Below are positions 1 to 56,504 of a stretch of DNA of 64,000 nucleotides, piece after piece. The stretch is from the NCBI GenBank assembly GCA_902791935.1, contig CADAXQ010000001.1, positions 41,561 through 105,560 of the forward strand. The letters run 5' to 3'. The notes under the pieces were generated by a model. That model was not told the origin of the DNA, made no database searches, and saw only the letters and a program-made list of their open reading frames with translations. The stretch's first letter is position 1. Every line of letters starts with the position of its first letter. Position numbers and translations under genes: made by a program. This DNA comes from an uncultured Erysipelotrichaceae bacterium. Its GTDB lineage: Bacteria; Bacillota_I; Bacilli_A; RFN20; CAG-826.

Positions 1-1416
1 GCCTATAAAGCTTGATGGGAAGCCAAAATATTGGCTTGAAGAAGAAACGTAGGCATCTTCCGAAGAACAGGTGAGTTCAAACGATTCCATTGCGTCTACG
101 GCCGTGGCAGGAAGGATATTGCTTAACAAAACGTTATAGGTCTTGCCAGCATAGAAGACAGCATCCGATTTCGTCGCGTTCTTTTCGGCGCTGATGATGA
201 CATCATATTGCTGGTAGAAGCGGTCATTTAAATCAAAGGCGCCATCGGCATTTGCTTTCTTGTCGCCCGTCTTGTAACTGCCCCGATACGTCGTCCGACT
301 GACCCGGTCTCCTTTGACATTGGTATCGGTGTTGTAGGCATAACGGATTTCTTGGGCGTCCCAAGAAGATAACATGCCGTTTGCCAAGAATGTCACATCT
401 AGCGAACGTTCATAGAACGAACTCCCCGAAATGGCGTCGGCTTTAAACGAATAAGAAAGATCCGTTTTGGCGGCTTGGAAGTTTTGAACGACCGAGGAAG
501 ACAAGAAGTCATTGCTTCCTAAGAAATAGTTTTGTAACAAATCGCCGAAACCATAGAACGCCACTTGATTCGGGGCGGCATAAGCAATGGTGCTTAAAGC
601 CATGTCAGCTTTAGACCGATCAATTTCTTGACTCGAAGACGCCGCATTCACGATGGTTTGCGAAGTGTTTGCGCCGACAAAACTCATACTCTTCCAACCC
701 GTTGCGGTTTGGCTTTGCGTCAATTGCAGGTATTTGCCTGCTTCTTCGGCGTGGACAATCCGTCTCGTTTCCGTACTTTCGCCTTCTTGTAACACGACTT
801 TTAATTCGTTTTGTTTGCCGGCATAGGGTGTGGCTTCCACGTTTTGCTTTGCCAACAATGTTTCGTCATTCGCGCCATAGGAAACAACTTCATACGTGGC
901 AGCATTCACGGCCACTTGCTCTTTGGCTTTGCTTGCCGATAATGCCGGCAATAAGTCTCTTGTTACGGCACTCGCATACGGATAAACGACTTTTAAGCTC
1001 ACTTGGCTAGAGAGCCCGTTATCTGTTGCGGCCGTGATTTGAACGACCGGAACGGCATCATCCGTGATTTTTAAAGCTTTTAAGGTGTTGCCCTCTATGG
1101 CAACGTAGTCAGGACGAGAAGACGTGACTGTGACTTGGTTCGTTGCTCCTTCTGGCGCGAGAGCATAAGAAAACGATAACGATTCTCCGACTTCTAAGAT
1201 GTTTTTCTCGATATTGAGCTTAATTTCCGTTGCTTCCACAGTCGATACATCGGAACTAGAAGAAGATGATGAAGTAGAGGAAGATACGGACGAATCCACG
1301 CTCTGAGAGGATTCTTGCGCTGAGGAACTACTGACAGTAATGGTTTTGTTACAGCCGGTGATGGCAAAGGCGGAAAGGACCAAAAGTAATGTTTTAGCGT
1401 GGCGGGCTTTGGACAT
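1..1416 (-). CDS. surface lipoprotein, N-terminal part only (gene runs off the left edge); Ser-rich linker followed by a bacterial Ig-like (Big_2-type) segment
   Basis: Minus-strand reading from the ATG at 1416..1414 (GGAGG SD complement at 1424-1428) gives MSKARHAKTLLLVLSAFAITGCNK..., a signal peptide plus lipobox (AITG|C). A poly-Ser linker follows and the frame stays open to position 1. It is absent from the ORF track because no stop lies in the window. Confidence 0.8.
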   Translation of the reverse strand, partial: MSKARHAKTLLLVLSAFAITGCNKTITVSSSSAQESSQSVDSSVSSSTSSSSSSSDVSTVEATEIKLNIEKNILEVGESLSFSYALAPEGATNQVTVTSSRPDYVAIEGNTLKALKITDDAVPVVQITAATDNGLSSQVSLKVVYPYASAVTRDLLPALSASKAKEQVAVNAATYEVVSYGANDETLLAKQNVEATPYAGKQNELKVVLQEGESTETRRIVHAEEAGKYLQLTQSQTATGWKSMSFVGANTSQTIVNAASSSQEIDRSKADMALSTIAYAAPNQVAFYGFGDLLQNYFLGSNDFLSSSVVQNFQAAKTDLSYSFKADAISGSSFYERSLDVTFLANGMLSSWDAQEIRYAYNTDTNVKGDRVSRTTYRGSYKTGDKKANADGAFDLNDRFYQQYDVIISAEKNATKSDAVFYAGKTYNVLLSNILPATAVDAMESFELTCSSEDAYVSSSSQYFGFPSSFIG

Positions 1417-1481
1417 AGATAAGCCTCCTTTAATGAAATCACCTCATGGTAAAGGACAAAAAGAGAAAAAGCAAGCATTTA

Positions 1482-1516
1482 AGTATATTAAAACCTCATT
1501 TGCAAACGAGGGATGA
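1482..1516 (+). repeat. left terminal inverted repeat of the IS
   Basis: 1490-1516 is the exact reverse complement of 2684-2710. Outward extension to about 1482/2718 has 2 mismatches. The core is itself an imperfect palindrome (CCTCaTTTG/CAAAcGAGG). Confidence 0.8.
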
Positions 1517-1596
1517 TTTTTTAAAGTGTTATAATTGACTCGCCCAGGGAAAAAGGATGGGCAATCAAATGGCCTTTCCACGGCGGCGTCGCAGAT

Positions 1597-2673
1597 TTGA
1601 CTTGGCGGTCCTGCGTCGCCGTCGTGGAAAAGCCGACCGCCAAAAACATGAAACAGAAAAAGGGAAAGCCCCTTTTCACGTCGCTGCGACAATTTTCGTG
1701 GTCCGGGGAAAAGGGGAGGACCGGGACGGAGGCCATGATCGAGGCCACCGTTTTGGAGTGGTACGAGCAAAAGCACAGAAAGCCTTCGCCGGAGGAGCTG
1801 GCGCTCATCAATTCGATCAAGCCGAAATGCTGCCCGCATTGCGGCGGGACGTTCGCAAAAGACGGGTTCAGGGGATCGGGGATAAGAAGCTTCGAATGCT
1901 GCGAATGCGGCAAAAAGTTCACGGCTTTGACGGGCACGATCTTCGATTCGAAAAAGATACCCATCAGCGAATGGATAGAGTTTCTGCTCCACCTGTTCGA
2001 ATTCCATTCGCTGAAGACGTCGGCGTCGGACAATAGAAACGCGGAAACGACCGGCCGCTACTGGCTTTCCAAGGTCTTCGCCGTGCTCCGAGGAATCCAG
2101 GACGAAATCGTCCTGTCCGGGAGGGTTTGGATCGACGAGAAGCTCTTCGACGCCCCGAAATCCGAGAAGGAATCGGCCAAAAGGGGCTCGGGCGCCAAAG
2201 GCGGCTCGGCCAGGGGCTGCCAATACTATGTGGCCTGCGGGACCGACGGGAAGCGCAGCTTCTACGTCGTCGCCGGAAAAAGCAAGCCGGGCGACAAGGC
2301 CATGCTCAAGGCATACGGAAAGAGAATCGCCGAATGCTCGACCTTGGTCCACGACGGCGAAAGGGGCCACAACGCCGTCATCGACGCGCTCGCCTTGAAA
2401 AGCGAGGTCCACACAAGCGCCGAAACCCGCGGAATGAAGGACGAGGACAATCCTTTGGACGAGATAAACGATCTCCACGACAAAATGGAGAAGTTCATGC
2501 GGGCCCATTCCGGCTACGATCGAGCAAGCCTTCAGGACTGGATGAATCTGTTTTGGCTGTTGACGAACGGGCCGAGGGACAAAATGGACAAGGTGAAATG
2601 GTTCCTGGAGATGGCGCTTTCGAAGAAAATCCGAATAAAATACCGCGACAGATTCGGGAAAACCGAGAAATAA
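1597..2673 (+). CDS. IS1595-family (ISXO2-like) DDE transposase with N-terminal zinc ribbon
   Basis: Zinc-ribbon motif CCPHCGG-x16-CCECGKKF, followed by candidate catalytic acidic residues in VWIDEKLF and LVHDGERGHN. Length is about 350 aa and the ORF is flanked by IRs. The true start may be an internal Met (for example MKQKKGK at about 1648). Confidence 0.8.
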   Translation: MTWRSCVAVVEKPTAKNMKQKKGKPLFTSLRQFSWSGEKGRTGTEAMIEATVLEWYEQKHRKPSPEELALINSIKPKCCPHCGGTFAKDGFRGSGIRSFECCECGKKFTALTGTIFDSKKIPISEWIEFLLHLFEFHSLKTSASDNRNAETTGRYWLSKVFAVLRGIQDEIVLSGRVWIDEKLFDAPKSEKESAKRGSGAKGGSARGCQYYVACGTDGKRSFYVVAGKSKPGDKAMLKAYGKRIAECSTLVHDGERGHNAVIDALALKSEVHTSAETRGMKDEDNPLDEINDLHDKMEKFMRAHSGYDRASLQDWMNLFWLLTNGPRDKMDKVKWFLEMALSKKIRIKYRDRFGKTEK

Positions 2674-2683
2674 TCGAATCTAT

Positions 2684-2718
2684 TCATCCCTCGTTTGCAA
2701 ATGAGGTTTTAGTATATT
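2684..2718 (-). repeat. right terminal inverted repeat of the IS
   Basis: Reverse complement of 1482-1516, with the perfect 27-bp core at 2684-2710. Confidence 0.8.
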
Positions 2719-2819
2719 AAATATTTTGACGCGTGCACGTGAAAAAATGCGTTCGCCTTGCGTTCCTCCTTGATTTTCGAGATAATCCCCCTAGATTCCA
2801 AAAAGGAGGACGATACGAT

Positions 2820-2951
2820 ATGAAAAAGACGACTATCCCTTGGCTATTCGCGGCTTCTCTCCTCTTGGCGGCTTGTGGAGAAACGATTGCTCCTTCCCCC
2901 TCAAGCACCATTCCTTCGTCGATTAGCTCTTCTCAACCCACGGATGTATAA
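2820..2951 (+). pseudogene. 5' fragment of a lipoprotein gene (signal peptide + lipobox + Ser/Pro linker), ended by an in-frame TAA
   Basis: GGAGG SD at about 2804-2808, ATG at 2820, MKKTTIPWLFAASLLLAACGETIAPSPSS... (lipobox LAA|C). TAA at 2949-2951 is in the same frame as the 687-aa ORF that starts at 2979 (2979-2820=159, a multiple of 3). Confidence 0.7.
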
Positions 2952-2978
2952 TCGTTCATTCGCGAGACGATTCTTTCG

Positions 2979-5042
2979 ATGGCGAACGGCAATTTTGCCT
3001 TAACCTATGACATCGGTGGTCATTCCTTTACTGACACCATCAACCCCCGTTACACGTACACGGGCTATTTGCAAAAAGGCAGCGTGTTGCTCCAAACCTA
3101 CGGAACTACGCCCTATGCATATGATTACACCATCAGCCAAGATGGCGTGGAAATCCGTGGCCAAACTTTCGATGAATTCTATCAAAAGCAAGAAGTTTCT
3201 TCGTTAGCGTACCGCAATCACTTTGCTGATGCTGCCGCTTGGAAATTCGAAGGCACCGTCACCAACGACGAGTTTATCTCTACCGAAAGTGGCCTTTTAA
3301 ACGCATTCCAAGATCAATTGGATTTCACCGGCATCAAAAAGATTGGCTTAGCCGAAAAAGATGGCTTACTTAACGTCCATCTTTATGCGTCTGATCCAAC
3401 GACTGGCAAAGATTACATCCCCGAAGGTGGCGATGTTGTGGTTTCTTCAATCGGAAGCGCGTCGCTTCCCGAAGTGGAAGCCTTGTTATCCACCTGGAAA
3501 AACGATGCGAACGGTTATCAAGGAAGCCTAGATAATGTGACGGGCGACGTCTCTTTTGTCTCGGCCATCTATGATTATTTCTATTTAGATGAATCGGACC
3601 AAATCGAGCGGCAAGGTTATTCGAATCTTGACCGTTATGGCGACTATGTGCGGATTACCGATATCGACGAAGAAGGAGCCGGCCGCGCTTATACCTATGA
3701 AAAGCAAACGGATGGCGAAACGCTTTCCTTAGTCGGTGTGAACGCCAAAAACGAGATGAAGAAGACGAGCACCACGACGACCTATTCTTCGTTTGGCTTC
3801 TACACGGCGGATTCGTTCCCAAGAACCCAATTCCAACAAATCGGCTCCGATGCCGATTATTACACCTATTTAGGCACGGACGCAACGAAGTTAGCTTATG
3901 CCATCACCCAACACCAACGGTTCTTAGAATGGCCAGTGGTAGAGGCGAAAATGAAAGTCGAGAATGGCAAAATCACGCAATTTGTCTTTACGACGGACAT
4001 CATGCTTGATCGGGATACCGGCCGTTATTTCTACCGTTATGCCGATGTTCGGGTGCAAGATACCCCGAACGTAATCGAAGGACCAGTCCTTAAAACTCCA
4101 TCGGCCGATGATGCTGAAATTCAAGGATACTTAGCCAATCTGAACCAAGACGATTCCGTATTCACTAGCCTCGGCAAAGACTCTGCTTGGGAAGGAAATC
4201 GTGTCACCAAAGCCGTCAAAGGCACGGACTTCTATCTCAAAGGCACCTATTACACCGATGAGGAGGGAAATCCAACCACTTTGGAAAAGAATGGCGATGG
4301 TTACTTCTTAAGTGGTGACAAGCTTTATTCCTTCACCTTCAACGATGCTGGCGAAGTTACGACATTTAACAAAAATCCATTGTCTAAAACCTTAAAAGAG
4401 GTAGCTGGCTTCTCTATTTCCAGTGCCGTATTGAAAAAAGACGGCAACACCTTAACCACCTATGGTGATATCTTGGATTTAGGGGATTTCATCGGTGCAG
4501 TCGACAATCCTTTAACGGTTGATCCTTCGACGTTCAATATGGGTATTGTCAATGGCAAAATTGGAACGATCCACTTCGCTTATCAAGGTGGGATGGAAGA
4601 CGTTACGCTAGATTATGCAACAACTAGCATGCCTGTAACACTGCGTTCCAACATTGAAAAAGCCGTGGCTGCCTTAAATCCCAGTGAGCGGGAAACTTTC
4701 GCAGATGATTCTTCAAAAACCACTGTTTACGATTCGATGGTTGAACAATGGGGCGAAGATGTCGCCAAAAAAGTTCCGTATTTGAGAAACCGTACCTGGG
4801 AAGAAGCTAATCCCAACAGCACCTATTTTGACGGCTATTACGATGAAAGCACTTCCGAATTTATCATTTCCGTTTGGGAAACCGTTGACTCTTATACCGA
4901 AGCTTACAAGGCATATTTGAAAGAACTCGGTTATATGAGCAGCGACAATGTAACATTCGAAAATCAGACGGATGGACTCCAAATCAAGGTGAACGCAGAC
5001 GATCAGTACCAATTCATCATCGTCAAATTGTTGAAAGCGTAA
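2979..5042 (+). CDS. large hypothetical surface protein (687 aa) lacking its own signal peptide; probably the mature part of the interrupted lipoprotein gene 2820..5042
   Basis: Long ORF with clean coding character. It has no signal peptide and no SD before the ATG at 2979, and it is in frame with the upstream lipoprotein leader across a single TAA. I recognise no family. Confidence 0.75.
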   Translation: MANGNFALTYDIGGHSFTDTINPRYTYTGYLQKGSVLLQTYGTTPYAYDYTISQDGVEIRGQTFDEFYQKQEVSSLAYRNHFADAAAWKFEGTVTNDEFISTESGLLNAFQDQLDFTGIKKIGLAEKDGLLNVHLYASDPTTGKDYIPEGGDVVVSSIGSASLPEVEALLSTWKNDANGYQGSLDNVTGDVSFVSAIYDYFYLDESDQIERQGYSNLDRYGDYVRITDIDEEGAGRAYTYEKQTDGETLSLVGVNAKNEMKKTSTTTTYSSFGFYTADSFPRTQFQQIGSDADYYTYLGTDATKLAYAITQHQRFLEWPVVEAKMKVENGKITQFVFTTDIMLDRDTGRYFYRYADVRVQDTPNVIEGPVLKTPSADDAEIQGYLANLNQDDSVFTSLGKDSAWEGNRVTKAVKGTDFYLKGTYYTDEEGNPTTLEKNGDGYFLSGDKLYSFTFNDAGEVTTFNKNPLSKTLKEVAGFSISSAVLKKDGNTLTTYGDILDLGDFIGAVDNPLTVDPSTFNMGIVNGKIGTIHFAYQGGMEDVTLDYATTSMPVTLRSNIEKAVAALNPSERETFADDSSKTTVYDSMVEQWGEDVAKKVPYLRNRTWEEANPNSTYFDGYYDESTSEFIISVWETVDSYTEAYKAYLKELGYMSSDNVTFENQTDGLQIKVNADDQYQFIIVKLLKA

Positions 5043-5055
5043 TCATCTACATGTT

Positions 5056-5089
5056 AAAAAGCCTGGTGGAAATGCTCCATCAGGCTTTT
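5056..5089. terminator. bidirectional rho-independent terminator between convergent genes
   Basis: GCCTGGTGGA (5061-5070) pairs with TCCATCAGGC (5076-5085), a 10-bp stem with one G-T pair. It is flanked by an A-run upstream and a T-run downstream. Confidence 0.7.
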
Positions 5090-5101
5090 CATTAACCCGG
5101 T

Positions 5102-5737
5102 TTAGGATTGCGCAGAGGCTGCTTTTAAATAATTCAGAACTCCGTCTTTAAAATCGGCAGAGGCGTTAGACGTAAATTCGATAACGCATAGAGAAACATC
5201 ACCCGATTTCATGATATAAAACGCATCCGAATCGCTGTCTATTTTGAAAGGAAGACTCGAATAAGGGAAGAAAGAACTTACAAACCAATAGTTGATCGAG
5301 CCACGATCATCCTTGTTATTTGGATCTAACGGGACCATGCGATGCTCGTAGAATTCTTTTCCTTCAACTGGCAGAAAGCGAATCGCAGCATAAGAAGAAG
5401 GATAAGTCTTTGAAATCACGCAACCCCATGCTTGGCGATCATGAAGATAGAGGCATTCTTTCGGGTGACTGTCATCGTCTTTCACGCGACCCTCGTTGAC
5501 GCATTCATCAATGCCGGAGATGGAATAGTCATAAGCGAATCCAACGTCAGATGATGAAAGATCGAACCAGCGCGGATTGGTTTCTTCTCGACATTCATTT
5601 TGCTTTTTCCAAGAAGAAATGGCAGAAGCCAAATCGTCATAACGGTCAATAAAGACACGTTGACTTCCTAAATGCTGGAGGCAGCCATTGCATAGTAAAG
5701 CAACGCAAGCAAGAGGAATGAAAGAACGTTTTTCCAT
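5102..5737 (-). CDS. hypothetical lipoprotein (211 aa)
   Basis: Internal ATG at 5737 preceded by GAAGGAG. The N-terminus MEKRSFIPLACVALLCNGC has a lipobox (LCNG|C). The longer ORF-track start at 5806 lacks an RBS. Confidence 0.7.
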   Translation of the reverse strand: MEKRSFIPLACVALLCNGCLQHLGSQRVFIDRYDDLASAISSWKKQNECREETNPRWFDLSSSDVGFAYDYSISGIDECVNEGRVKDDDSHPKECLYLHDRQAWGCVISKTYPSSYAAIRFLPVEGKEFYEHRMVPLDPNNKDDRGSINYWFVSSFFPYSSLPFKIDSDSDAFYIMKSGDVSLCVIEFTSNASADFKDGVLNYLKAASAQS

Positions 5738-6120
5738 AATAGCTCCTTCAGAACGATTATTCTTCTTTAGCAATTTTTCAGCGCTCGAAGACGGTTTGTA
5801 TTTCAAAAATGTCTTCGCTCGTCTAAAACAGATGGAGCATTTAATACATACTCATCATACATCAAAAAACAAACTTAAAGAAAATTCAAACATATCGAAC
5901 ATAATCCAGGTATTTCGTTTAAAAATAGTTAAGCATAACCAAATCTCTATCCAGCGCTCTATCTATAAATAAAGCGCTTTGGACAAAGAAGCAAACGATG
6001 ATTTGTCTCTTTCCTAGTAGACATACCTCGGCAGTTTTAACGGCACTATCCTTTCTCTTTTTGTGGATACTGCGACTATTTTGCGTTACAATCGCTACGT
6101 ATTAATAAGGAGTATTAACA

Positions 6121-6678: not shown

Positions 6679-6681
6679 GCC

Positions 6682-6903
6682 ATGTCCCTCGAAGTTTGGC
6701 AGTTTGTTCTCTACATTATCCTTGCTTTAATCGTTGGCTTAGTTGGTGGATTCTTTGGCGCTCGGGCCTTAATTAAGTACCAGTTGAAGAAGAACCCTCC
6801 AATCAACGAGAAAATGATTCGCGCGATGTTTGCCCAAATGGGTCGGAAGCCATCAGAAGCTCAAGTCCGCGCCGTCATGAACTCGATGACGAAGAACCAA
6901 TAA
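6682..6903 (+). CDS. UPF0154/YneF-family small membrane protein
   Basis: 73 aa with one N-terminal TM helix, then the conserved block NPPINEKMIRAMFAQMGRKPSEAQV typical of YneF/UPF0154. Confidence 0.85.
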   Translation: MSLEVWQFVLYIILALIVGLVGGFFGARALIKYQLKKNPPINEKMIRAMFAQMGRKPSEAQVRAVMNSMTKNQ

Positions 6904-6922
6904 GTCGTATCGAAAGGCAAAT

Positions 6923-6949
6923 CAGCCCTGACATAAATCAGGGCTTTTT
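6923..6949 (+). terminator. rho-independent terminator after efp-yneF
   Basis: AGCCCTGA (6923-6930) pairs with TCAGGGCT (6937-6944), followed by a T-run. Confidence 0.8.
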
Positions 6950-7242
6950 TCGTGCCCTAGAATCAAGGATAGATTGACTTGTTTTGAACCGACTGATTTT
7001 CATAGTATGCAAGAGGCGAAAGTTATAGAAGGGTAGAAGAAGTTGCGCCCTTCATTTGTGTCTATCCCTTAGTGCCTCGTGACGATGCGTTTCCGTGAAT
7101 ATCTGAGCAGTAGGCAAGGAGAGGAAGTGGGTATAAAATCGGCAAAAATACCTCGTTCCCTATTTTTTCACACATTTTTCACCTTACCGTATTCAATTCA
7201 AAATTTAGTCAATCATTAACATTTGATGAAATCTAATATTTT

Positions 7243-7274
7243 TAAACAAAAAGTGGAGAATTAACTTTTCTCCA
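7243..7274 (-). terminator. rho-independent terminator after plsY
   Basis: GTGGAGAA (7252-7259) pairs with TTCTCCAC (7267-7274). On the minus strand the stem is followed by TTTTTGTTT. Confidence 0.75.
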
Positions 7275-7313
7275 CCATAAAATATAGATTGCTAGAAAAC
7301 TACTAATTATTTC

Positions 7314-8194: not shown

Positions 8195-10168
8195 ATGGCT
8201 AACGAAGAGAAAGACGAATTCATCGCTGCCGAGGAAAACTACACTGCCAAAGACATTGAGGTCCTTAGCGAGTTAGAGGGCGTTCGTAAACGTCCTGGCA
8301 TGTATATTGGAAGCACAAACCTCACTGGTTTGCATCATTTGGTATGGGAAATTGTCGATAACGCCGTGGATGAAGCTGTGAATGGCTACGGAAAGAAAAT
8401 TACCGTCACGATGATGCGGGATGGCTCCATTCAAATTGAAGACGAAGGACGTGGCATCCCCGTGGATATCCACCCCCAAGCTCATATTCCTGCCGTTCAA
8501 TTGCTTTATACGACGCTCCATTCTGGTGGCAAATTCAATAGCAAGGTCTATCAAACTTCTGCGGGTTTGCATGGCGTAGGCGCCACCGTAACAAACGCCC
8601 TTTCCGAATTTTTGGAAGTGACCATCTACCGTGAAGGCAAGATCTATCACATTGCCTTTCATAATGGCGGGCAGCTTTTGACCCCGTTAGAAGTTTTGGG
8701 CAATACGAGCAAACATGGCACGACCGTCCATTTCAAACCCGATCCAAAGATTTTCCCAAACACGAAATTCTCTTGGGATACGATTTATAACCGCTTGGAA
8801 GAGAAAAGCTATCTTTTAACCGGCGTTCATTTCATTTTGCGTGACCAAAAAAGTGGCAACAGTCATGAGTTCTATACGGAACATGGCTTACGCGAATACG
8901 TGCAATCGTTAACGCAAAACAAGACACCTTTAGGCGATATCATCGATTACACTGACAATTCCAACCCCATTCGTATCGAGATTGCCATGCAATGGTGCAA
9001 TGGCGACTATAATGAGAATGTGATTTCCTACGCCAACGACGTGAAAACCGCTGATGGCGGTACCCATGAAATCGGTTTTAAGACCGCGTTGACGAAGACA
9101 TTAAACGATTGGGCCCAACAAAACGAGATTATCAAACCGAACCAAACGATTGATGGCACCGATATCCGTGAAGGCTTAACCGCCGTGCTTTCCGTCAAAG
9201 TCCCCGAAAACCTTTTGGAATATGAAGGCCAGACCAAAGGCAAATTAGGAACGCCAGAAGCAACATCCGTCGTTTCAAACTCCTTCCAAAATTTCTTCCT
9301 TTATTATTTAAATGAACACAAAGACTTTGCGATTGACTTAATCAAGAAGTGCCAAGCTTCGAAAGACGCTAGAGAAGCGGCTCGGAAAGCAAAAGAAGCC
9401 GCCCGTGGCGCGAAAAAGAAGACCGTCGACTATGTCATCTCCGATAAACTTGCAAGCGCTCAATCGAAAGATTATGCGAATAACGAGCTCTTCATTGTCG
9501 AAGGCGACTCGGCTGGCGGCTCTGCCAAAACCGGTCGTGATCGGCTGCATCAAGCCATTTTGCCATTACGTGGCAAACCACTCAACACCGATAACGTCAC
9601 GATCGATAAAATCGTCAGCAATGTAGAATTCTCCACGTTGATTCAAACGATTGGCGCTGGTGTTGGCCAGAACTTCGATATCAGCGAAGCCCGTTATGGC
9701 AAGATCATCATCATGACCGATGCCGATACCGATGGCGCTCACATCCAAACGCTGCTTTTAACGTTCTTCTATAACTTCATGAAACCGTTAATCGACGCCG
9801 GCATGATTTATATCGCGCAACCGCCGTTATATCGGGTCTATAAGAAGAGCGATCCTTCCAAACACATCTATTGCTGGGACGATAAGCAATTAGAAGAAGC
9901 CAAAGCCAAGATTGGTGCCGGATACGGCATCAACCGTTATAAAGGTTTGGGTGAAATGAACGCCTCCCAATTAGCCGAAACCACCATGGACAAAAAGAAG
10001 CGGGTCTTGCTCCAAGTCAAAATCGACGATCCTTTGGTGGTGGAGAAACGAATCGGAATCTTAATGAGCAAAGACTCTTCAGCCCGCTGGAATTGGATTC
10101 AAGAAAATGTCACCTTCAATGACGAAGATAAATTCTTAGAAGAGCTTGAAGGGGAGAAAAGGAAATAA
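8195..10168 (+). CDS. parE: type IIA topoisomerase B subunit, called topoisomerase IV ParE by synteny
   Basis: GHKL ATPase motifs (GLHHLVWEIVDNAVDEA), Toprim EGDSAGG, PLRGK. The plsY-parE-parC neighbourhood is as in Firmicutes. Confidence 0.85.
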   Translation: MANEEKDEFIAAEENYTAKDIEVLSELEGVRKRPGMYIGSTNLTGLHHLVWEIVDNAVDEAVNGYGKKITVTMMRDGSIQIEDEGRGIPVDIHPQAHIPAVQLLYTTLHSGGKFNSKVYQTSAGLHGVGATVTNALSEFLEVTIYREGKIYHIAFHNGGQLLTPLEVLGNTSKHGTTVHFKPDPKIFPNTKFSWDTIYNRLEEKSYLLTGVHFILRDQKSGNSHEFYTEHGLREYVQSLTQNKTPLGDIIDYTDNSNPIRIEIAMQWCNGDYNENVISYANDVKTADGGTHEIGFKTALTKTLNDWAQQNEIIKPNQTIDGTDIREGLTAVLSVKVPENLLEYEGQTKGKLGTPEATSVVSNSFQNFFLYYLNEHKDFAIDLIKKCQASKDAREAARKAKEAARGAKKKTVDYVISDKLASAQSKDYANNELFIVEGDSAGGSAKTGRDRLHQAILPLRGKPLNTDNVTIDKIVSNVEFSTLIQTIGAGVGQNFDISEARYGKIIIMTDADTDGAHIQTLLLTFFYNFMKPLIDAGMIYIAQPPLYRVYKKSDPSKHIYCWDDKQLEEAKAKIGAGYGINRYKGLGEMNASQLAETTMDKKKRVLLQVKIDDPLVVEKRIGILMSKDSSARWNWIQENVTFNDEDKFLEELEGEKRK

Positions 10169-10171
10169 CCC

Positions 10172-12787
10172 ATGGCGAAACGGAACGAGAAAAAAGAGCC
10201 CGTCATCGTGGAAAACATCATTTCCGACACGTTAGACGAATTGATGGGCATGAAATATGCGATCTATGCGAAAGACGTCATTCAAGATCGTGCCATCCCC
10301 GATGCCCGTGACGGTTTAAAACCCGTCCAGCGCCGCATCATTTTCGACATGTTCAAAACAGGGAACACCATCGATAAACCCACGAAGAAATGCGCTCACA
10401 TCGTCGGTGACGTCATGGGCAAATATCACCCGCATGGCGACTCTTCGATTTACGAAGCGCTCGTGCATATGTCACAATCTTGGGCTTATCGGTATCCTTT
10501 GATCGATTTCCAAGGGAACAACGGTTCCATCGACGGCGATGGCCCGGCCGCTTATCGTTATACTGAAGCACGGCTTAGCGCTTTATCGAACGAACTCGTC
10601 GCCGATTTAGACCGCAATACCGTCGACATGGAATTAACGTTCGATGATACAGAATTAGAACCGACCGTTTTGCCATGCCGTTTCCCCAATTTGCTAGCCA
10701 ACGGCGCCGAAGGCATTGCCGTCGGGATCGCCACCAGCATCCCGCCTCATAACTTACGCGAACTTGTTTCGGCGATTTCTTATCGAATCAAACATCCGAA
10801 CTGCGATATGGACGCCTTGCTTCGTTATGTTCCCGGCCCTGATTTCCCAACCGGTGGCATCATTTACGAAAACGATGCATTGAAAGATATCTACCGCACA
10901 GGCAAAGGCAAAGTCACGATTTCTTCTCGTTACGAAATCATCGATGAACCCGATAAGCCCAAGCAAATCATCATCACAGAGATTCCTTATCGGACGAACA
11001 AATCGGAGCTAGTGAAAGCCATCGATCAAATCCGTCACGACAAGACAATTCCTGGCATTGATGAAGTACGGGACGAGACCGATAAGAGCGGTCTTCGGAT
11101 TGCGATCGACTTAAAAGATGAGGCAAAGCCAAGCGCCATCATTGCCTATTTACTCCAAAAGACGCCACTAAAAACGAATTACAGCGCCCATATGGTGGCC
11201 ATTGTCGATAACCGTCCTAAGACGATGGATCTCATTTCGTACTGCGATTGCTACATCGCCCATCAGTTGGACGTCATTTCGAGACGGACACGTTTTAACT
11301 TAGAAAAAGACCAAGCCCGTTTAAACATCGTCGAAGGCTTAATCCATGCCATCTCGATATTGGATGAGGTCGTGAAAGTCATCCGCGCTTCGCAAGATAA
11401 AAGCGACGCGAAAAAGAACATTGAAGCCGCTTTCGGTTTCAATGACGCCCAAGCAGAAGCCATCGTGATGATGCCGTTATACAAATTAAGCCATACGGAT
11501 GTCACGACGTTAGAAAACGAAGCGAAGTCATTACACGAAGATATCGATTATCTCAATTCGTTATTGTCAAACCAAGACAAGCGGGAAGACGTCATTATCG
11601 CGGACTTAAACCGCATCGCCAAAACTTATGGCGATAAGCGTCGTACGGAAATTCGCCCTGCCGAAGAAGAAAACATCGTCGTGAATAAACGCGACTTAAT
11701 CGCCGAAGAAGAGACGATGGTCGTCGCCACACGCGATGGTTATGTGAAACGTTCTTCACTCAAGAGTTGGAAAGGCTCTGGTGGTCATAATGGGATTCGT
11801 CCTGGTGTCAAAGCTGGTGACGCGTTCGTTTTTGAATGCCAATGCTTAACGACGGATTATCTCATTTTGTTCACGAGCAAAGGCAACTATGCCTACATTC
11901 CGGTGAATGATATCAAAGAGGCGAAGTGGAACGACGAAGGCTTCCATCTTTCGAGCCTCATCAGCATTCCTGCCGAAGATAAGCTGATCGGCGGTTTTGC
12001 CGTCCGTCACTTCCGGAATGACCTCTACATCTTAATGTTAACGGCCCATGGTTATATCAAACGGGTGCCGCTTTCTTCGTTAGAAGTCGTCCGCCACTCG
12101 AAAGCCATCGGCGCCATCCGCCTTTCGAAAGATGACCGCTTAATTGATGTCGCCTATACGGGTGGCAATGACACGGTCTTTGTTTTCTCTGAAGATGGCA
12201 AAGTTTCTGCCTATAACGAAAATGAGATTCAAATCTCGAATCCACGGACCTCTGGCGTGAAAGCCGGTTCGTTCCGCGGCAAAGAATTAGCGGGCTTATT
12301 AACATTCTTGCCCGATGAGAAATCGGAAAAGATTTTGCTTGTCACAAACCGCGGCTGCACCCGCGTTGTGGATTTATCACACTATACGCCCGGGCATCGG
12401 TTAGACAAAGCCGCTCCGTTATTCGACATGTTCAAGAAAGAGCCGCATGAAATCGTCTATCTTGAGAAAGTCGGCGATAAAACTGCGCCTTATAGCCTTG
12501 ATGCCGTGATGGAAGATGGCACGCGTTCGGATATTGTCTTTGATGATTTCTATCTCACGCCGAGTGAGAAATATGTGAAACGTCCTGATTCTTTCCCTGC
12601 CAAGGCAAGAATCATCCAAATCTCGCAAGAGAGTTCGCCTTTATTAGACGATTCCATCCCGTCGACGCCGCTCCCAGAAAAGCCAGCAGAGCCTGAAGAA
12701 GCCCCTGAAGCCGAAGAGAAGAAAGAAAGCGATGAGTTCGAGCAGCTTTCTTTGTTCGATGACTTAGATGACTTGGATCACAAATGA
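10172..12787 (+). CDS. parC: type IIA topoisomerase A subunit, called topoisomerase IV ParC; acidic C-terminal tail
   Basis: [10 protein letters not shown] and HPHGD motifs, and AAYRYTE with the catalytic Tyr. No canonical GyrA box (QRRGGKG) in the C-terminal domain. It follows parE. Confidence 0.85.
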
Positions 12788-14470: not shown

Positions 14471-14758
14471 ATGTTGACACCAAAAAACAAAGCGCTATTA
14501 AAGAAATTAGCCAATCCGTTAAAGCCTCAATTGACATTAGGAAAAGGCGAAGCCGATCCGAAAGTCATGGAAGCGATTGACCATTCTTTGACCGCGCATG
14601 AACTGATTAAAATCCGGGTACTCCCCAATGCGAATACCACGTTAGAAGAATTAGCAAACGCCATCTGCTCGGCAACCAAAGCCGATTTGGTCGATATCAT
14701 CGGCCGCGTCTTGATTCTCTACCGCCCGAATCCGAAGAATCCGCGGATTGTGCTTTGA
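14471..14758 (+). CDS. yhbY: YhbY/YqeI CRM-domain RNA-binding protein
   Basis: 95 aa with the CRS1/YhbY pattern (LKKLANPLKPQLTLGKGE...ELIKIRV) and synteny. Confidence 0.85.
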   Translation: MLTPKNKALLKKLANPLKPQLTLGKGEADPKVMEAIDHSLTAHELIKIRVLPNANTTLEELANAICSATKADLVDIIGRVLILYRPNPKNPRIVL

Positions 14759-14759
14759 T

Positions 14760-15887
14760 ATGGAAAAACTCATTCTCTTTGGCGGAACGTTCGATCCGGT
14801 GCATCGGGGTCATTTACGCATCGCAAGGGAAGCGTCATTGCGTTATAACGCCGATGTCGTTTTCTTGCCGAACAAAACGCCACGCTGGAAAACACCTGGC
14901 GCCAGCGCGGAAGACCGTCTTGCGATGTTACGCCTCGCGTTAGAAGAAGATGGCTCTCCTTCCTTCCGTATCGATGACCGCGAGTTAAAACGTCCAGAAG
15001 AAGTTTCTTATTCGATTGATACCATTCGTGAATATCGGAAGAAATATCCGCGTTATAAGCTTTATTTCTTAATGGGCGCAGATGAAGTGAATCTCTTCCC
15101 CAAATGGAAAGATGCGGAGGAAATCGCGAATACTGTCCATCTCATTTATTCTGGCAGACCAAAAGAAGCAATCGATCCTGAAATCGTAAAGACCTATCAT
15201 TTTGAATCTTTGGAATTTAATGGTTCAGGTGAAGTTTCTTCTTCATCCGTAAGAACGTTACATTCGGTTGATGTGCCTTCTAAGGTTTTAACCTATATTG
15301 AAGAACATCAGTTATATTTCATCCCCAAAGTTCATTCTTATTTAAAGGATAAGAGATTTCATCATTCTTTATCGGTTGCCCACGTGGCTTATGCGATTGC
15401 TATCACGAATCATATCTCCGATCCCGGACGTGCCTATATTGCCGGGGTCTTGCACGATATCGGGAAAGAGTTGCCGCCTGAAAAGTCTTCCGCCATCATG
15501 AAGGAAGCTTATCCAGAATATGTCGACTATCCTGCGTTTTCATGGCATCAGTTTACGGGTGCCTATCTCGCGGAGCACGATTTCGCCATCACGGATAAAT
15601 CGATTTTGGACGCGATTGAATATCATTGTACAGGCAAAGCCCATATGGCGCCTTTGTTAAAAATCATCTTCGCGGCCGATAAGATTGAACCCACCCGTGG
15701 CTATGATTCTTCTGCCTTGATTAAAGCCTGTTTAAAAGATTACTATGTCGGGTTTTTGAAAGTCATCCAAGAGAACGCGAAATTCTTAGACGCGAAGGGT
15801 GGAAAAGACAGTACCGAGCTAAGTCGGGAATGTTATGAAGAATATTTAAGTCAAGAGAAAGCAAAGAAAAGGAAAAAAGAAAAATGA
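14760..15887 (+). CDS. nadD: fusion protein: nicotinate-nucleotide adenylyltransferase NadD + HD-domain hydrolase YqeK
   Basis: The N-terminus has GGTFDPVHRGH (nucleotidyltransferase). The C-terminal half has the HD motifs HSLSVAH...LHDIGKE. ATG at 14760 is preferred over the TTG at 14748. Confidence 0.9.
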   Translation: MEKLILFGGTFDPVHRGHLRIAREASLRYNADVVFLPNKTPRWKTPGASAEDRLAMLRLALEEDGSPSFRIDDRELKRPEEVSYSIDTIREYRKKYPRYKLYFLMGADEVNLFPKWKDAEEIANTVHLIYSGRPKEAIDPEIVKTYHFESLEFNGSGEVSSSSVRTLHSVDVPSKVLTYIEEHQLYFIPKVHSYLKDKRFHHSLSVAHVAYAIAITNHISDPGRAYIAGVLHDIGKELPPEKSSAIMKEAYPEYVDYPAFSWHQFTGAYLAEHDFAITDKSILDAIEYHCTGKAHMAPLLKIIFAADKIEPTRGYDSSALIKACLKDYYVGFLKVIQENAKFLDAKGGKDSTELSRECYEEYLSQEKAKKRKKEK

Positions 15888-16213
15888 AAGAAGAAAAGTT
15901 AGTCACCGAGATCAAAGCGATCTTAGAAGACAAGAAAGCGGAAGATGTCGTCGCGGTAGATGTCAGCGACCGGACACCATTCTCTGATTATTATGTCATT
16001 GCGACCGCACCGAACGAACGGGCGATGGAAGCAACGGCCCAGGCATTAGAAGACGGCCTTTGGGAGAAGGAACAAATCGAAACAAAGAAGGAAGGACAGT
16101 TGGAGTCCGGCTGGATTGTAGTAGACTGTGGACGTGTCCTAGTCAGTATCTTCACCGCTGAAATGCGTGCGCATTATCAGTTCGATGATTTGTTCAAAAT
16201 CGCGAAAGCATAA
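15884..16213 (+). CDS. rsfS: ribosomal silencing factor RsfS (iojap family)
   Basis: 109 aa with the conserved DYYVIATAPNERAMEA and WIVVDCGRVLVSIF blocks. ATGA overlap with nadD/yqeK. Confidence 0.9.
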   Translation: MKEEKLVTEIKAILEDKKAEDVVAVDVSDRTPFSDYYVIATAPNERAMEATAQALEDGLWEKEQIETKKEGQLESGWIVVDCGRVLVSIFTAEMRAHYQFDDLFKIAKA

Positions 16214-16255
16214 TTCGTCAATTTATTGGTTATAAAAAATAAAAACGGATTAATA

Positions 16256-16289
16256 AACACTCCGATAGCCAAAGCAGGAGTGCTTTTTT
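16256..16289 (+). terminator. rho-independent terminator after rsfS
   Basis: CACTCC (16258-16263) pairs with GGAGTG (16277-16282), followed by CTTTTTTG. Confidence 0.7.
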
Positions 16290-16490
16290 GCTGCGCCGAA
16301 TGCAAAGCAATCAAAAGGGCTAAAATCAAAATAAATTAACTGATTAGACACGATATACCGATATTTGTAAATCGAGCAAGTATTCCGTTTTATCGGTAAA
16401 GTAGTAGAAAAGGAATATCCATTCGAAAATCAAAATAAAAACTCATTTATAAAAATCATTACACTTCTATAAAATACATATTTTTATCAA

Positions 16491-16518
16491 ACTTCGCATA
16501 ATGTCCATTATGTTAATA
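16491..16518. other. dif: dif chromosome-dimer resolution site (XerC arm / 6-bp spacer / XerD arm)
   Basis: ACTTCGCATAA-TGTCCA-TTATGTTAATA. By hand alignment it matches E. coli dif (GGTGCGCATAA-TGTATA-TTATGTTAAAT) at 21/28 positions. It matches B. subtilis dif (ACTTCCTAGAA-TATATA-TTATGTAAACT) at 19/28. It lies in a non-coding gap at the plus-to-minus strand switch, and xerD is 1.7 kb away. Confidence 0.85.
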
Positions 16519-16926
16519 AAAAGAAGTATAAATACGCTTTTTATGCTAATTTTATAAAATTAATGATAAATTTATTCACACAAAAATATAAAAATTAACA
16601 ATTTTATTAACAATATTTGTAAACTACTAAATAAAAACTATTACTAATTTTTAATTTCGAATCGATTATTTCTAAATTTTGCTTAATTGTTTTGCTATCA
16701 TCAAAAATGATCTTTTAATATTTTTCCTTAATTTTTATTTAAATTGACGTATGTCTAATCGGTAATTCTATGCGTCTACAATGTCTCAAAACCCCTATTT
16801 TTGGTTTATCATCTGATATCTTCATCACAAAACAACCTTTTTCAATCGGCTTTTATTTTCCTTATTTTATATCGTCAATTTTTATCAACTTTTCTATCAC
16901 GATTTTTTTCTTGTTTTCGAAAAAGA

Positions 16927-16958
16927 AAAAGCGATCTCTTTTTAGAAGGGGTCGCTTT
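16927..16958 (-). terminator. terminator hairpin downstream of deoB
   Basis: AAAGCGA pairs with TCGCTTT around a 16-nt loop. On the minus strand the stem is followed by TTCTTTTT. Confidence 0.55.
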
Positions 16959-17008
16959 CGTTGTTCATAGAATTTATAATCGGTATTTTATTATCGATTT
17001 ATATTTCT

Positions 17009-18202
17009 TTATTTCAGTATCTCTTCAATGGGCTCGCCGATGAGATGATCCGGTTTCGTGAGTCCAAAGTTTTTCAGAATCGTTGCGCCCATGTCTCCAA
17101 AGCAAGCACGCTCTTCTAAGTAACGTCCGTCGGTAATCGCCGGTGAATACGCCAACAACGGAACTTTCTCTCTCGTGTGATCCGTTCCTTTGAACGTCGG
17201 ATCGTTTCCATGGTCGGCAGTAATCAATAACAAATCATCGGGACGCATGACTTGCATCATCTCTCCAACGCGTTTATCAAAGTCTTCTAAGGCATGCGCA
17301 TAACCTGGCGCGTTCCGTCTATGACCGTATTCGGAATCGAATTCAACCAGGTTTACGAAACATAGTCCTTCCCAATCTTCGTTTTTGACTTGCTCGATGG
17401 TTTTATCCATGCCATCCATGTTCGAAATGGTATGAACCGTCTTAGTGACGCCGGCCATGTCGAAGATATCGGAGATCTTTCCAATGCAGCTCGTCATAAA
17501 ACCATGGTCTTTTAAAGCGTCCATATCCGTTTTTACCGGGGGTTGCAACGCGTAATCGTGGCGATTTGGAGTCCGCTTAAAGTTATCTTTGTTGGTTCCG
17601 ATATAAGGACGTGCAATTACTCGCCCTACTCGCCATTCTGGCTTCATGCAGATTTCGCGGGCGATCTCACAGCACCGATAAAGCTCTTGTAAGCCCGTAA
17701 CTTGTTCATGGGCGGCAATTTGAAGGACGGAATCGGCGGATGTATAAACAATCAACGAATTCTCTTTCATTTGCTCTTCGCCGAGGACTTTCAAGATTTC
17801 TGTGCCGCTCGATGCATAGTTTCCAATGACTTTATGGCCGGTTCTTTGTTCTAATTCATCAATCAGTTCTTTCGGGAATCCGGTATCCGTAAATGTTTTA
17901 AAAGGATGTGTCGTTAAAACGCCCATCATTTCCCAGTGGCCCGTCATCGTGTCTTTGCCATTCGATGCTTCGCGGCAACGGAGACTAAAACTATGTCGGT
18001 GATCTTTTACCGGTTTAACTCCCATGATGTCATCGAGTTCACCGATACCCATCGATTCCATATAAGGAACATGGATGCCGCCAACGGAGGCGGCCGCATG
18101 GGCCCAGGTATTAGAACCAACATCGCCAAAACGATCGGCATCGGGCTCTTCGCCAACGCCTGCGCTATCGGCAACAATCAAGAAGATTCGTTTGTATTTC
18201 AT
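17009..18202 (-). CDS. deoB: phosphopentomutase
   Basis: Full-length similarity to DeoB/Drm (IVADSAGVGE..., GHWEMMG, TADHGNDPT). ATG at 18202 with a GAGAGGA SD is preferred over the ORF-track start at 18247. Confidence 0.93.
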   Translation of the reverse strand: MKYKRIFLIVADSAGVGEEPDADRFGDVGSNTWAHAAASVGGIHVPYMESMGIGELDDIMGVKPVKDHRHSFSLRCREASNGKDTMTGHWEMMGVLTTHPFKTFTDTGFPKELIDELEQRTGHKVIGNYASSGTEILKVLGEEQMKENSLIVYTSADSVLQIAAHEQVTGLQELYRCCEIAREICMKPEWRVGRVIARPYIGTNKDNFKRTPNRHDYALQPPVKTDMDALKDHGFMTSCIGKISDIFDMAGVTKTVHTISNMDGMDKTIEQVKNEDWEGLCFVNLVEFDSEYGHRRNAPGYAHALEDFDKRVGEMMQVMRPDDLLLITADHGNDPTFKGTDHTREKVPLLAYSPAITDGRYLEERACFGDMGATILKNFGLTKPDHLIGEPIEEILK

Positions 18203-18253
18203 TGTCATTCCTCTCTTTTTGACGAGGGTTGACTCTCGTCCCTTCATTGTAGG

Positions 18254-19138
18254 TTATTTCCGCGAAGCATACAAATCATAGGCACTCATGATGCGGCGCG
18301 TAGAAACTTCAGTGTAAATCTGGGTCGTTGCAATCTTGGCATGCCCTAACATCTCTTGCACGGCCCGTAACGAGGCGCCATTTTCTAATAAATGCGTCGC
18401 AAAGCAATGCCGTAACGTGTGCGGCGAGATAGAGGCTTCGATGCCCGCCGCTGCGGCATAACGCTTCACCTGCACAAAGAAATAATTCCGGGAGATTGGT
18501 TTCCCCTCGCGATTCAAAAACAAGACATTGCTCCGATGACCGGGGTTTCGCGCTCTTGGACCATTTACATATTTTTCTAAATATTCCAAGGCAAAAGATG
18601 AAATCGGGACCGTTCGTTCTTTGTTGCCTTTCCCATAGACTGTGACGAGCCCATCCGTCAAATTTACATTTTTAAATTGTAAAGATAATAATTCCGAAAC
18701 ACGGAGCCCGGTCGCATACATGACTTCGAGCATGGCACGATCGCGAATTCCGTTGTCTTTCGTGAGGTCGGGCATCGCAAAAAGACGATTGATATCTTCC
18801 TCATCGATGACGACCGGCAACCGTTTTGCCGGTTTTGGCTTGTCGTCATAAGATATCGGTCTTCCTTTCCTGATTCCTTCCGCCGAAAGGAAATTGAAAT
18901 AATGACGGAGGAAGCTATAACGGCGGAGAATGGTCGCCGCAGCCATGCCATTATTGTCTTCTTCGCGAAGAAACGTCGGAATCATGTCTTCATCAAGGTC
19001 TTTCGTGTCTTTCACGTCCGGAAACGAACGAAGAAAGATCTTAAAATCTTCGCGATAATCCTCGACGGTTGCCTTACTCGCGACATTTTCGAGGCGTAAA
19101 TTTTGTAAGAAATATTCTAACGATTCATGAATTTCCAT
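18254..19138 (-). CDS. xerD: tyrosine recombinase XerD-type
   Basis: C-terminal catalytic block HTLRHCFATHLLENGASLRAVQEMLGHAKIATTQIYTEV. It is adjacent to deoB as ripX-drm is in B. subtilis. Confidence 0.85.
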   Translation of the reverse strand: MEIHESLEYFLQNLRLENVASKATVEDYREDFKIFLRSFPDVKDTKDLDEDMIPTFLREEDNNGMAAATILRRYSFLRHYFNFLSAEGIRKGRPISYDDKPKPAKRLPVVIDEEDINRLFAMPDLTKDNGIRDRAMLEVMYATGLRVSELLSLQFKNVNLTDGLVTVYGKGNKERTVPISSFALEYLEKYVNGPRARNPGHRSNVLFLNREGKPISRNYFFVQVKRYAAAAGIEASISPHTLRHCFATHLLENGASLRAVQEMLGHAKIATTQIYTEVSTRRIMSAYDLYASRK

Positions 19139-22297: not shown

Positions 22298-22504
22298 TTA
22301 TTCTTTCGATGTATCCTTAAGTTTTTCCACTTCTTTCTGCGCATTATCTAAAGTTGTCTTTAATTCTTTGATTAATGCCATTCCTTCTTGATAAAGCGCA
22401 AACGATTCTTCTAAAGGAAGCACAGAATTTTCAGTTTTTTTGACAATCTCGTTCAACCGATTTAAGTTGTCTTCGAAAGATTTTGCTTTTTTCTTTTCCG
22501 CCAT
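22298..22504 (-). CDS. xseB: exodeoxyribonuclease VII small subunit
   Basis: 68 aa with the FEDNLNRLNEIVKKTE...LPLEES..LYQEG pattern. It follows xseA. Confidence 0.9.
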   Translation of the reverse strand: MAEKKKAKSFEDNLNRLNEIVKKTENSVLPLEESFALYQEGMALIKELKTTLDNAQKEVEKLKDTSKE

Positions 22505-55488: not shown

Positions 55489-56424
55489 TTATACTTTGAG
55501 GCGTTCGGCGGCATTTAAGACGGCTTCGACTTGGGATTTTGCCATTTTTGCTTCGGGATAAGAAAGCCCGAGTTTCTTCGCTTCCTCTTCCTCATTCCAA
55601 GCCGATCTTAGATAAGTATGGGCCAACGTTTCAAAGACCCATAAATACAACGATTCATCCGCTACGTCTTTTAAAAACGAATCCGGGAATAGCTCAAAGA
55701 AATAATTATTGGCCAAATCATGCGCGACCCCCGCCAAAGAAGGATCTTTTAACGTTTGGTCTAAGCGGGTCAAGAAATGACGATAAGCCGATTCTTCATA
55801 AGGCGGCACGACTTCTTTCGGAACAAGGCGATAGACTTTGCCATTCTTCATGAATGTGACGTTTTGGTCATACTTGGCCTTGCAAAGCAAAATCAACGCA
55901 TAGGTTTTGACGAGATTCGAAGGTGAAGTCTCTAGCAATTTCGCTAGCGTTTTGGCATAGCGAAGCGTGTCGGCATCTTGGAAATTGGCAAGATAAGATA
56001 ACGCTTCATAAGGATCTTTCGGATGTAATAACTTCTCTTCGACTTCTTCAGGAGAGGAAATCGCCGGACGAAGACTGGCCCGTTCTGCCGTGCGAATCCG
56101 TAACGGAAGCGCCCGTAATTGTTCTTCGACTTCTTGTGAGACGTAAGGATAATTCTCAAATACCGCCATATCATCGTAGGCTTCATCGAATTCTTCTAAG
56201 GCAAAACGGAGCTCAAAGTTCGTCTTTAACGTCAATAAAGGATTGGTTTGAAATAAAGAATCGCGATAACGAAGGCAAAGCTGCATGGCCTCTTTGCCGC
56301 GATTTAAAGCCAGTAAGGCGGCGATGCGATAAAAAAGATCATTCGGTGCCGTCTTGCCTTCACTTTCTTTCAAGACGGCATCATACTGTCCTTTTGCCAT
56401 TGCGTCTTGGTAATTCCATGCCAT
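55489..56424 (-). CDS. hypothetical helical-repeat (TPR-like) protein in the position of B. subtilis ysoA upstream of tig
   Basis: 311 aa, predicted all-helical with repeat-like N-terminal segments. The call rests on position only. Confidence 0.55.
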   Translation of the reverse strand: MAWNYQDAMAKGQYDAVLKESEGKTAPNDLFYRIAALLALNRGKEAMQLCLRYRDSLFQTNPLLTLKTNFELRFALEEFDEAYDDMAVFENYPYVSQEVEEQLRALPLRIRTAERASLRPAISSPEEVEEKLLHPKDPYEALSYLANFQDADTLRYAKTLAKLLETSPSNLVKTYALILLCKAKYDQNVTFMKNGKVYRLVPKEVVPPYEESAYRHFLTRLDQTLKDPSLAGVAHDLANNYFFELFPDSFLKDVADESLYLWVFETLAHTYLRSAWNEEEEAKKLGLSYPEAKMAKSQVEAVLNAAERLKV

Positions 56425-56504
56425 ACGGCAATTTTAGCCGAAAGCGTAGGAGAAAGGAATGCGTGACGTTCCTTTTTCTAAGAAAAAACGCTAGAATGAG
56501 AACG

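Follow-up and report, generated by a model that had tools for sequence, protein, structure and literature searches.

The stretch of DNA analysed here, referred to as the window, is 64 kb long and corresponds to C1:41561-105560 of G000, the draft genome of an uncultured Bacilli bacterium (54 contigs, 1.93 Mb, 45% GC, 92% complete). Positions without a contig name refer to the window. Two sets of genes converge on an AT-rich gap of 795 bp (16214-17008). To the left of it, the plus strand encodes efp, parE (8195-10168), parC (10172-12787), yqeG, yqeH, yhbY, nadD/yqeK and rsfS, with plsY among them on the minus strand. ParE and ParC form topoisomerase IV, and their genes belong to a conserved core block that is syntenic with the relatives G005, G009 and G072. 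In B. subtilis, parE and parC are terminus-proximal. The last gene of the yqeG-yqeH-yhbY-nadD/yqeK-rsfS operon is rsfS (15884-16213, plus strand; TIGR00090, 84.4 bits), whose 3' end points towards the 28-bp site described below. Within this operon nadD and yqeK form a single fused ORF of 379 aa (14748-15887) with a full-length match to PRK07152, a model of the fusion, which is also kept in relatives. To the right, the minus strand encodes deoB, xerD, dinB, dxs, xseA and about 30 further ORFs. The phosphopentomutase gene deoB (17009-18247, minus strand; NF003766, 532 bits) is the first gene of this run and also has its 3' end towards the site.

The initial annotation described a strand switch in this gap, and indeed the plus-strand genes end at 16213 and the minus-strand run opens at 17009. 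It counted about 40 consecutive minus-strand genes, which is too many: we count about 33, with some 30 ORFs of 98 aa or more as far as 55386 and three more beyond an ambiguous stretch of 1.7 kb. In that stretch (55489-57245), the sole ambiguous one of the run, a 311-aa ORF on the minus strand overlaps a 440-aa ORF on the plus strand with a GTG start, and neither has a Pfam match. The housekeeping operons on the left do run on the plus strand as was claimed, but farther left the genes are mostly on the minus strand again. Likewise, the gap had been called the only long non-coding gap of the window; it is the longest, but there is a second one of 635 bp at 6679-7313.

Within the gap lies a putative dif site of 28 bp, ACTTCGCATAA-TGTCCA-TTATGTTAATA (16491-16518, plus strand; G000:C1:58051-58078), which occurs only once in the window. 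The proposed 11-6-11 layout was confirmed, with two 11-bp arms that form an imperfect inverted repeat around a 6-bp centre, as in dif. The inner parts of the arms, CATAA and TTATG, form a perfect 5-bp inverted repeat. By analogy with the dif sites of E. coli and B. subtilis, the left arm ACTTCGCATAA (16491-16501) would be the XerC-type arm and the right arm TTATGTTAATA (16508-16518) the XerD-type arm; the latter reads TTATGTWAA throughout the order. The centre TGTCCA (16502-16507), the presumed strand-exchange region, is where the sites of relatives differ most.

Counted by hand, the site is identical to E. coli dif at 8 of 11 positions in the left arm, 4 of 6 in the centre and 9 of 11 in the right arm, so both figures given before (21/28 overall and 9/11 in the XerD arm) are right, and a genome-wide mismatch scan also gives seven mismatches. 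As evidence, however, this likeness is at chance level in this genome: mononucleotide-shuffled genomes are expected to contain 0.4 sites with seven mismatches or fewer, and the next best real site has eight (20/28). The site is the genome-wide best match to the dif of E. coli and H. influenzae. Against B. subtilis dif it has 9 mismatches in 28 positions, which is level with several chance matches.

Since raw identity fails to separate the site from chance, we used a weight matrix made from 48 distinct sites of related genomes, with G000 left out. The site scores 44.7 bits, and the next positions in the draft score 13.6 and 12.3 bits and both fall within coding regions. The claim that this is the single best copy in the genome therefore stands for the 92%-complete draft, which has no equal or better site. 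The matrix is partly circular because this site supplied the pattern by which the sites of the relatives were found; the pattern has no bearing on arm positions 1-6, the gene context or the polarity data.

The 28-mer is found within three mismatches in 8 of 24 genomes of the same GTDB genus, in single copy each time. The core pattern YATAAT-N5-TTATGTWAA is present in 27 of 28 genomes of the family (in single copy in 24 of those) and in 90 of 121 genomes of the order, and a reversed control pattern is rare. Arm positions 1-6, ACTTCG, lie outside the search pattern and are nonetheless kept in nearly all core-pattern matches; they are missing precisely from the few matches that are without the gene context. 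In an alignment anchored on the site, the information per position is 1.60 bits in the arms, 0.69 in the centre, and 0.34 and 0.43 in the 30-bp flanks. The 28-mer is thus a sharply bounded island of conservation. Central variants in the relatives include GTCCA, GTCTA, AACCA, GCCCA and TTCCA, among others, and a variable central spacer within fixed arms is what would be expected of the core site of a tyrosine recombinase. The context, with nadD/yqeK-rsfS on the plus strand, then the site, then deoB/xerD/dinB on the minus strand, recurs in about 50 genomes, other families of the order included, and the orientation of the site relative to the flanking genes is constant in all of these. The positions of rsfS and deoB beside the site are kept in relatives, and in many of them xerD adjoins it. 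The nearest records for the XerD protein come from ‘uncultured Erysipelotrichaceae bacterium’ RUG13633 (89% identical) and RUG14006 (66%), with ‘Bacilli bacterium’ MAGs next. RUG14006 has the site with one central change and the same gene context.

A palindrome with a perfect 5-bp inner inverted repeat that lies in AT-rich DNA between convergent operons could also be an operator through which a transcription factor controls the yqe operon or deoB, or belong to a bidirectional terminator, with no relation to Xer recombination. We consider this highly improbable. The site is located at the 3' ends of both operons, away from their promoters. Its outer arms are asymmetric and match the dif arms of Firmicutes and E. 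coli, and it is the arms that are fixed and the centre that varies. The site is kept where deoB is 2 kb off and where xerD takes the place of deoB as neighbour, and it coincides with the global polarity switch described below. There is no G+C-rich stem and, for the whole gap, no match in Rfam; promoter- and terminator-like sites in the gap are at the level of shuffled sequence.

Another reading is that the site is an attachment or junction site, or a scar, of a mobile element that exploits Xer (IMEX) rather than the primary dif. It could draw on the AT-rich 0.8-kb gap and on a 9/10 copy of the XerD arm, TTATGCTAAT at 16541-16550, 22 bp downstream of the site. Conservation does not extend to this half-site even in the closest relative in which the region is present, and the gap has no more repeats than chance would give in AT-rich DNA. 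No second dif-like site was detected in the draft assembly and no phage or plasmid genes in the gap. Several relatives have additional DNA between dif and deoB, which was considered as a mobile element and rejected: it is an ordinary pair of minus-strand genes for a permease-like protein and a lipoprotein. An origin from an IMEX thus seems very unlikely, and we regard the site as the primary dif. The extra pair (L062:13122-14988 in G005 and L155:2805-4661 in G078) encodes a multi-pass permease-like membrane protein of about 275 aa and a lipobox protein of about 343 aa. Between genera these proteins share 33-41% identity, and neither matches a Pfam family. The pair is absent from G000, where there is a 490-bp AT-rich spacer instead.

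The genome encodes the proteins that a dif site would need. The distance from the site to xerD (18254-19138, minus strand), given before as 1.7 kb, is 1,735 bp. Its product is a tyrosine recombinase of 294 aa that scores higher with the XerD model (TIGR02225, 305.6 bits) than with the XerC model (277.4 bits). Aligned from end to end with E. coli XerD (1A0P), it has the catalytic motifs LRVSE (Arg), GKGNKER (Lys), HTLRH, LGH and IYT (Tyr) in register. A XerC-like paralogue is encoded at C17:24678-25595 (XerC 320.9 bits, XerD 306.2 bits), and its catalytic motifs were seen by eye. Both proteins score under the equivalog cut-offs and over the cut-off of the PRK00283 subfamily. C12 encodes a third tyrosine recombinase, a distant integrase of the phage type. 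Lastly, a 1000-aa ORF on C21 encodes an FtsK with a gamma domain (one PF09397 match, 52.7 bits). The genome thus contains cognate Xer paralogues and a gamma-domain FtsK, together with a candidate polar word (see below). A system of the XerS/difSL type, in which a 31-bp site lies beside the gene of a single XerS recombinase of about 356 aa, does not fit: the site measures 28 bp and not 31, the 294-aa XerD reaches only 120.4 bits with the XerS model, and there is a second Xer paralogue.

The initial annotation proposed to check replication polarity over the whole replicon. The 54 contigs of the draft rule out a whole-replicon GC skew, so skew extrema per contig and a polar word found de novo were used. 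The search for strand-skewed octamers left C1 out and covered 25 other contigs (1.18 Mb). On these contigs AGAAGTGS has a leading:lagging ratio of 181:9 (AGAAGTGC 68:1, AGAAGTGG 113:8), and the skew is present in both co-oriented and head-on genes and does not depend on gene orientation. With 309 occurrences, about one in every 6.3 kb, the word is 2.7 times as frequent as the mononucleotide composition predicts. By the published standard for FtsK-orienting polar sequences (KOPS), over 75% of the copies are on the leading strand, the share near dif is 90% or more, and there is no less than one copy per 40 kb (PMC3384302); AGAAGTGS has all three properties. In this genome the skew of the known KOPS, SRS and lactococcal words is no more than 64-68%, compared with 95% for AGAAGTGS.

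Only two of the contigs of 20 kb or more clearly switch word polarity from one part to another: on C16 the words diverge and dnaA is present, and on C1 they converge. The last plus-strand word on C1 is at 50,905 and the first minus-strand word at 63,887, which brackets dif at 58.05 kb; to the right of dif, C1 has no word on the plus strand and 17 on the minus strand. In the window, the nearest word on the left is AGAAGTGC at 9345-9352 (plus strand), which points rightward to dif. On the right there are six minus-strand words, the first being AGAAGTGG at 22327-22334 and the others at 28707, 34314, 37100, 45464 and 46873, and all six point leftward to dif. Run on the draft contigs, the polarity check thus agrees with the position of the site.

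AGAAGTGS may be an FtsK-orienting word of the KOPS type, and would then be a new one that differs from GGGNAGGG, GAGAAGGG and GAAGAAG; the guide word would also turn over fast within this group of small-genome Bacilli. We hold this proposal to be as likely as not. In G009 and G072, AGAAGTG(S) also flips at dif but is sparse, and other words are more skewed there. The most skewed ones are GGGGAGAG or AGGGGAG in G009 and G005, and AAGTGGT in G072 (GGGGAGAG 24:0 in G009, AAGTGGT 31:2). If AGAAGTGS is indeed the guide word, the group would provide a natural series for the co-evolution of FtsK-gamma and its DNA code with base composition.

On the large contigs of G000 the skew has its normal polarity: the strand with most of the genes is also the one rich in G. 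Of the contigs that reach 30 kb, C1 alone has a cumulative G-C curve with a large internal maximum (an excursion of 548; the next is 112). This maximum had been predicted at about 16.5 kb of the window. It was found at C1:44 kb, which is about 2.4 kb in the window and 14 kb to the left of the site. One explanation is that the site is a true dif but that replication forks usually meet about 14 kb to the left of it (about 2-3 kb in the window), at the border of a strain-specific island. Besides the position of the maximum, this is consistent with the 13-kb core block efp...rsfS (C1, 45-58 kb), which has a skew of -0.024 despite genes on the plus strand, about two standard deviations from the genome mean of windows oriented with the leading strand. 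Moreover, Kono et al. concluded that termination occurs near dif and not at dif (PMC3025954). However, the GC skew in this genome is weak (0.02-0.03) and noisy, with the wrong sign in 18% of 13-kb windows. The coding strands of the core genes are C-rich in congeners too, so the negative skew of the block may stem from the genes themselves. The AGAAGTGS word at C1:50905 still points rightward, a high-GC element with strongly positive skew sits right at the maximum, and the island to the left is recent DNA in which the skew need not mirror local replication. For these reasons we consider a meeting point so far from dif possible but doubtful. Between dif and skew shift points, distances of 0-1.39% at one sigma have been published, with outliers below 3% (PMC3025954); the offset of 14 kb, which is 0.7% of the assembly, lies inside this range.

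The high-GC patch (about 50% GC; 1444-2720) coincides with the cumulative skew maximum and adds to it. It has long ORFs of 354 aa on the minus strand and 358 aa on the plus strand. The Pfam search gave a sub-threshold zinc-ribbon match alone (E = 0.01) and no DDE transposase domain. The patch lies in the strain-specific island C1:1-47,000, the right end of which is window 1-5,800. This island has almost no counterpart in the contigs of relatives, abuts the conserved terminus block and has a positive skew. Its genes are mostly on the minus strand, which would be head-on if the plus strand leads there. A prophage or ICE was considered as the cause of the head-on genes and rejected, since Pfam shows ordinary accessory genes and no integrase. 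The genes encode ABC and MFS transporters, surface proteins of the BspA-type LRR and Big_2 kinds, a DUF3427 helicase, an M13 peptidase and a melibiase, and the large island ORFs at 1-1416, 2979-5042 and 5102-5806 have no match in Pfam or NCBIfam. Because the island is strain-specific and head-on and contains three polar words (two on the plus strand and one on the minus strand), the left replichore is poorly documented in this assembly. It is represented there only by the core block of 10 kb, the positive skew of the island and the synteny with relatives.

Polarity was also compared in three relatives with long contigs, the congeners G005 and G009 (53-58% GC) and the family member G072 (25% GC). 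Over spans of hundreds of kb, the share of genes on the plus strand falls from 71% left of dif to 16% right of it in G009, from 80 to 15% in G005 and from 75 to 12% in G072. In G072 the GC skew is about +0.17 before dif and about -0.2 beyond it, which is a classical terminus signature. A block of 15 kb (C1:82-97 kb) lies to the right of dif on the minus strand in both G000 and G072. In G005 and G009 the same block is on the opposite side of dif and strand-flipped, and is still co-oriented with replication. This is the pattern of a terminus-symmetric rearrangement.

The dif site lies where gene orientation and AGAAGTGS converge, and therefore the window spans the junction of two replichores. 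The earlier reading that the window includes the terminus is supported by the AGAAGTGS convergence, the gene-strand flip in relatives, the skew flip in G072 and the conserved context. From these lines of evidence we infer with high confidence that 16491-16518 is the chromosomal dif (XerCD) of this bacterium, at its replichore junction. By the paradigm of E. coli and B. subtilis (PMC5357621), it would act when an odd number of crossovers has joined the sister chromosomes. The two dif sites, each with XerC bound to ACTTCGCATAA and XerD to TTATGTTAATA, would then synapse at the closing septum. FtsK, steered to dif by polar words, would bring the sites together and possibly activate catalysis, as it does with XerD in E. 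coli, or else serve only to position the DNA, as in B. subtilis. The dimer would be resolved via a Holliday junction, by one pair of strand exchanges and then another over the 6-bp centre.

In B. subtilis, dif works with CodV (XerC), RipX (XerD), SpoIIIE/SftA and SRS (GAGAAGGG). The site described here has the same 28 bp and 11-6-11 layout, and in B. subtilis dif the left arm also starts with ACTTC and the right arm with TTATGT. Both organisms have two paralogous recombinases and a near-terminus site. In B. subtilis, too, the leading strand has polar octamers that are oriented towards dif (PMC5357621; PMC3384302), and no direct activation of XerD by a translocase is known (PMC5357621). The systems differ in that one gamma-domain translocase was detected in G000 and B. 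subtilis has two, that the SRS word is only 68% skewed here, and that xerD lies beside dif here. With the E. coli system (XerC/XerD, FtsK and the KOPS GGGNAGGG), the shared positions of dif include CGCATAA and TTATGTTAA, and both systems have a gamma-domain FtsK and a single-copy site at the replichore junction. The outer left arm is ACTT here and GGTG in E. coli, and GGGCAGGG is only 64% skewed in G000.

As in the difSL/XerS system of Lactococcus and Streptococcus, the recombinase gene adjoins the site. The polar motif is A-rich, non-canonical and GAAG-related, like the atypical lactococcal and streptococcal KOPS GAAGAAG; the streptococcal KOPS candidates GTAGAAG and GAAGCAG have also been proposed (PMC3384302). 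In contrast, the site in G000 is a classical one of 28 bp instead of 31 bp, there are two Xer paralogues, the recombinase scores about 305 bits as XerD compared with about 120 as XerS, and GAAGAAG is 65% skewed. Dif sites of Firmicutes and Tenericutes have been predicted by the same inference from uniqueness, palindromic arms, proximity to the skew shift point and the presence of Xer genes (Kono et al., 2011; Le Bourgeois et al., 2007). The present lineage of uncultured, small-genome Bacilli MAGs is outside these surveys. Kono et al. found xerC usually near dif and xerD near the origin (PMC3025954), whereas here it is xerD that lies beside dif.

The site type is already well known, and what we describe is the expected machinery in the expected place. 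Modestly new are an order-wide dif consensus with a fixed place downstream of rsfS, the location of xerD beside dif, the candidate FtsK word, and the reversed sign of the skew in higher-GC congeners. The site fixes the terminus in the draft genome of an uncultured rumen/gut bacterium, which aids contig ordering and peak-to-trough growth estimates. For an order of bacteria known only from MAGs it provides the dif consensus ACTTCG-YATAAT-N5-TTATGTWAA, always downstream of rsfS. GC skew alone would mislead in this group, as it is weak and 14 kb off in G000 and of opposite sign in higher-GC congeners.

In G009:C2 (L040-L059, dif at 242,999) and G005:C1 (L060-L069, dif at 52,268) there is a cumulative G-C minimum at dif. 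The gene-rich, leading strand is C-rich in these two genomes, so the sign of the skew is reversed, whereas G000 and G072 obey the usual rule. Origin and terminus calls based only on skew would therefore be swapped in G009 and G005. A GC3 skew of -0.14 on the coding strand of G000 could account for the reversal where GC is high and the gene-strand bias strong. Lastly, GTTTGAGAG, CTCTCTGAC and similar words occur about 50 times on G005:C1 (L060-L069), on one strand only, and look like a large CRISPR-type repeat array within the first 200 kb of that contig.
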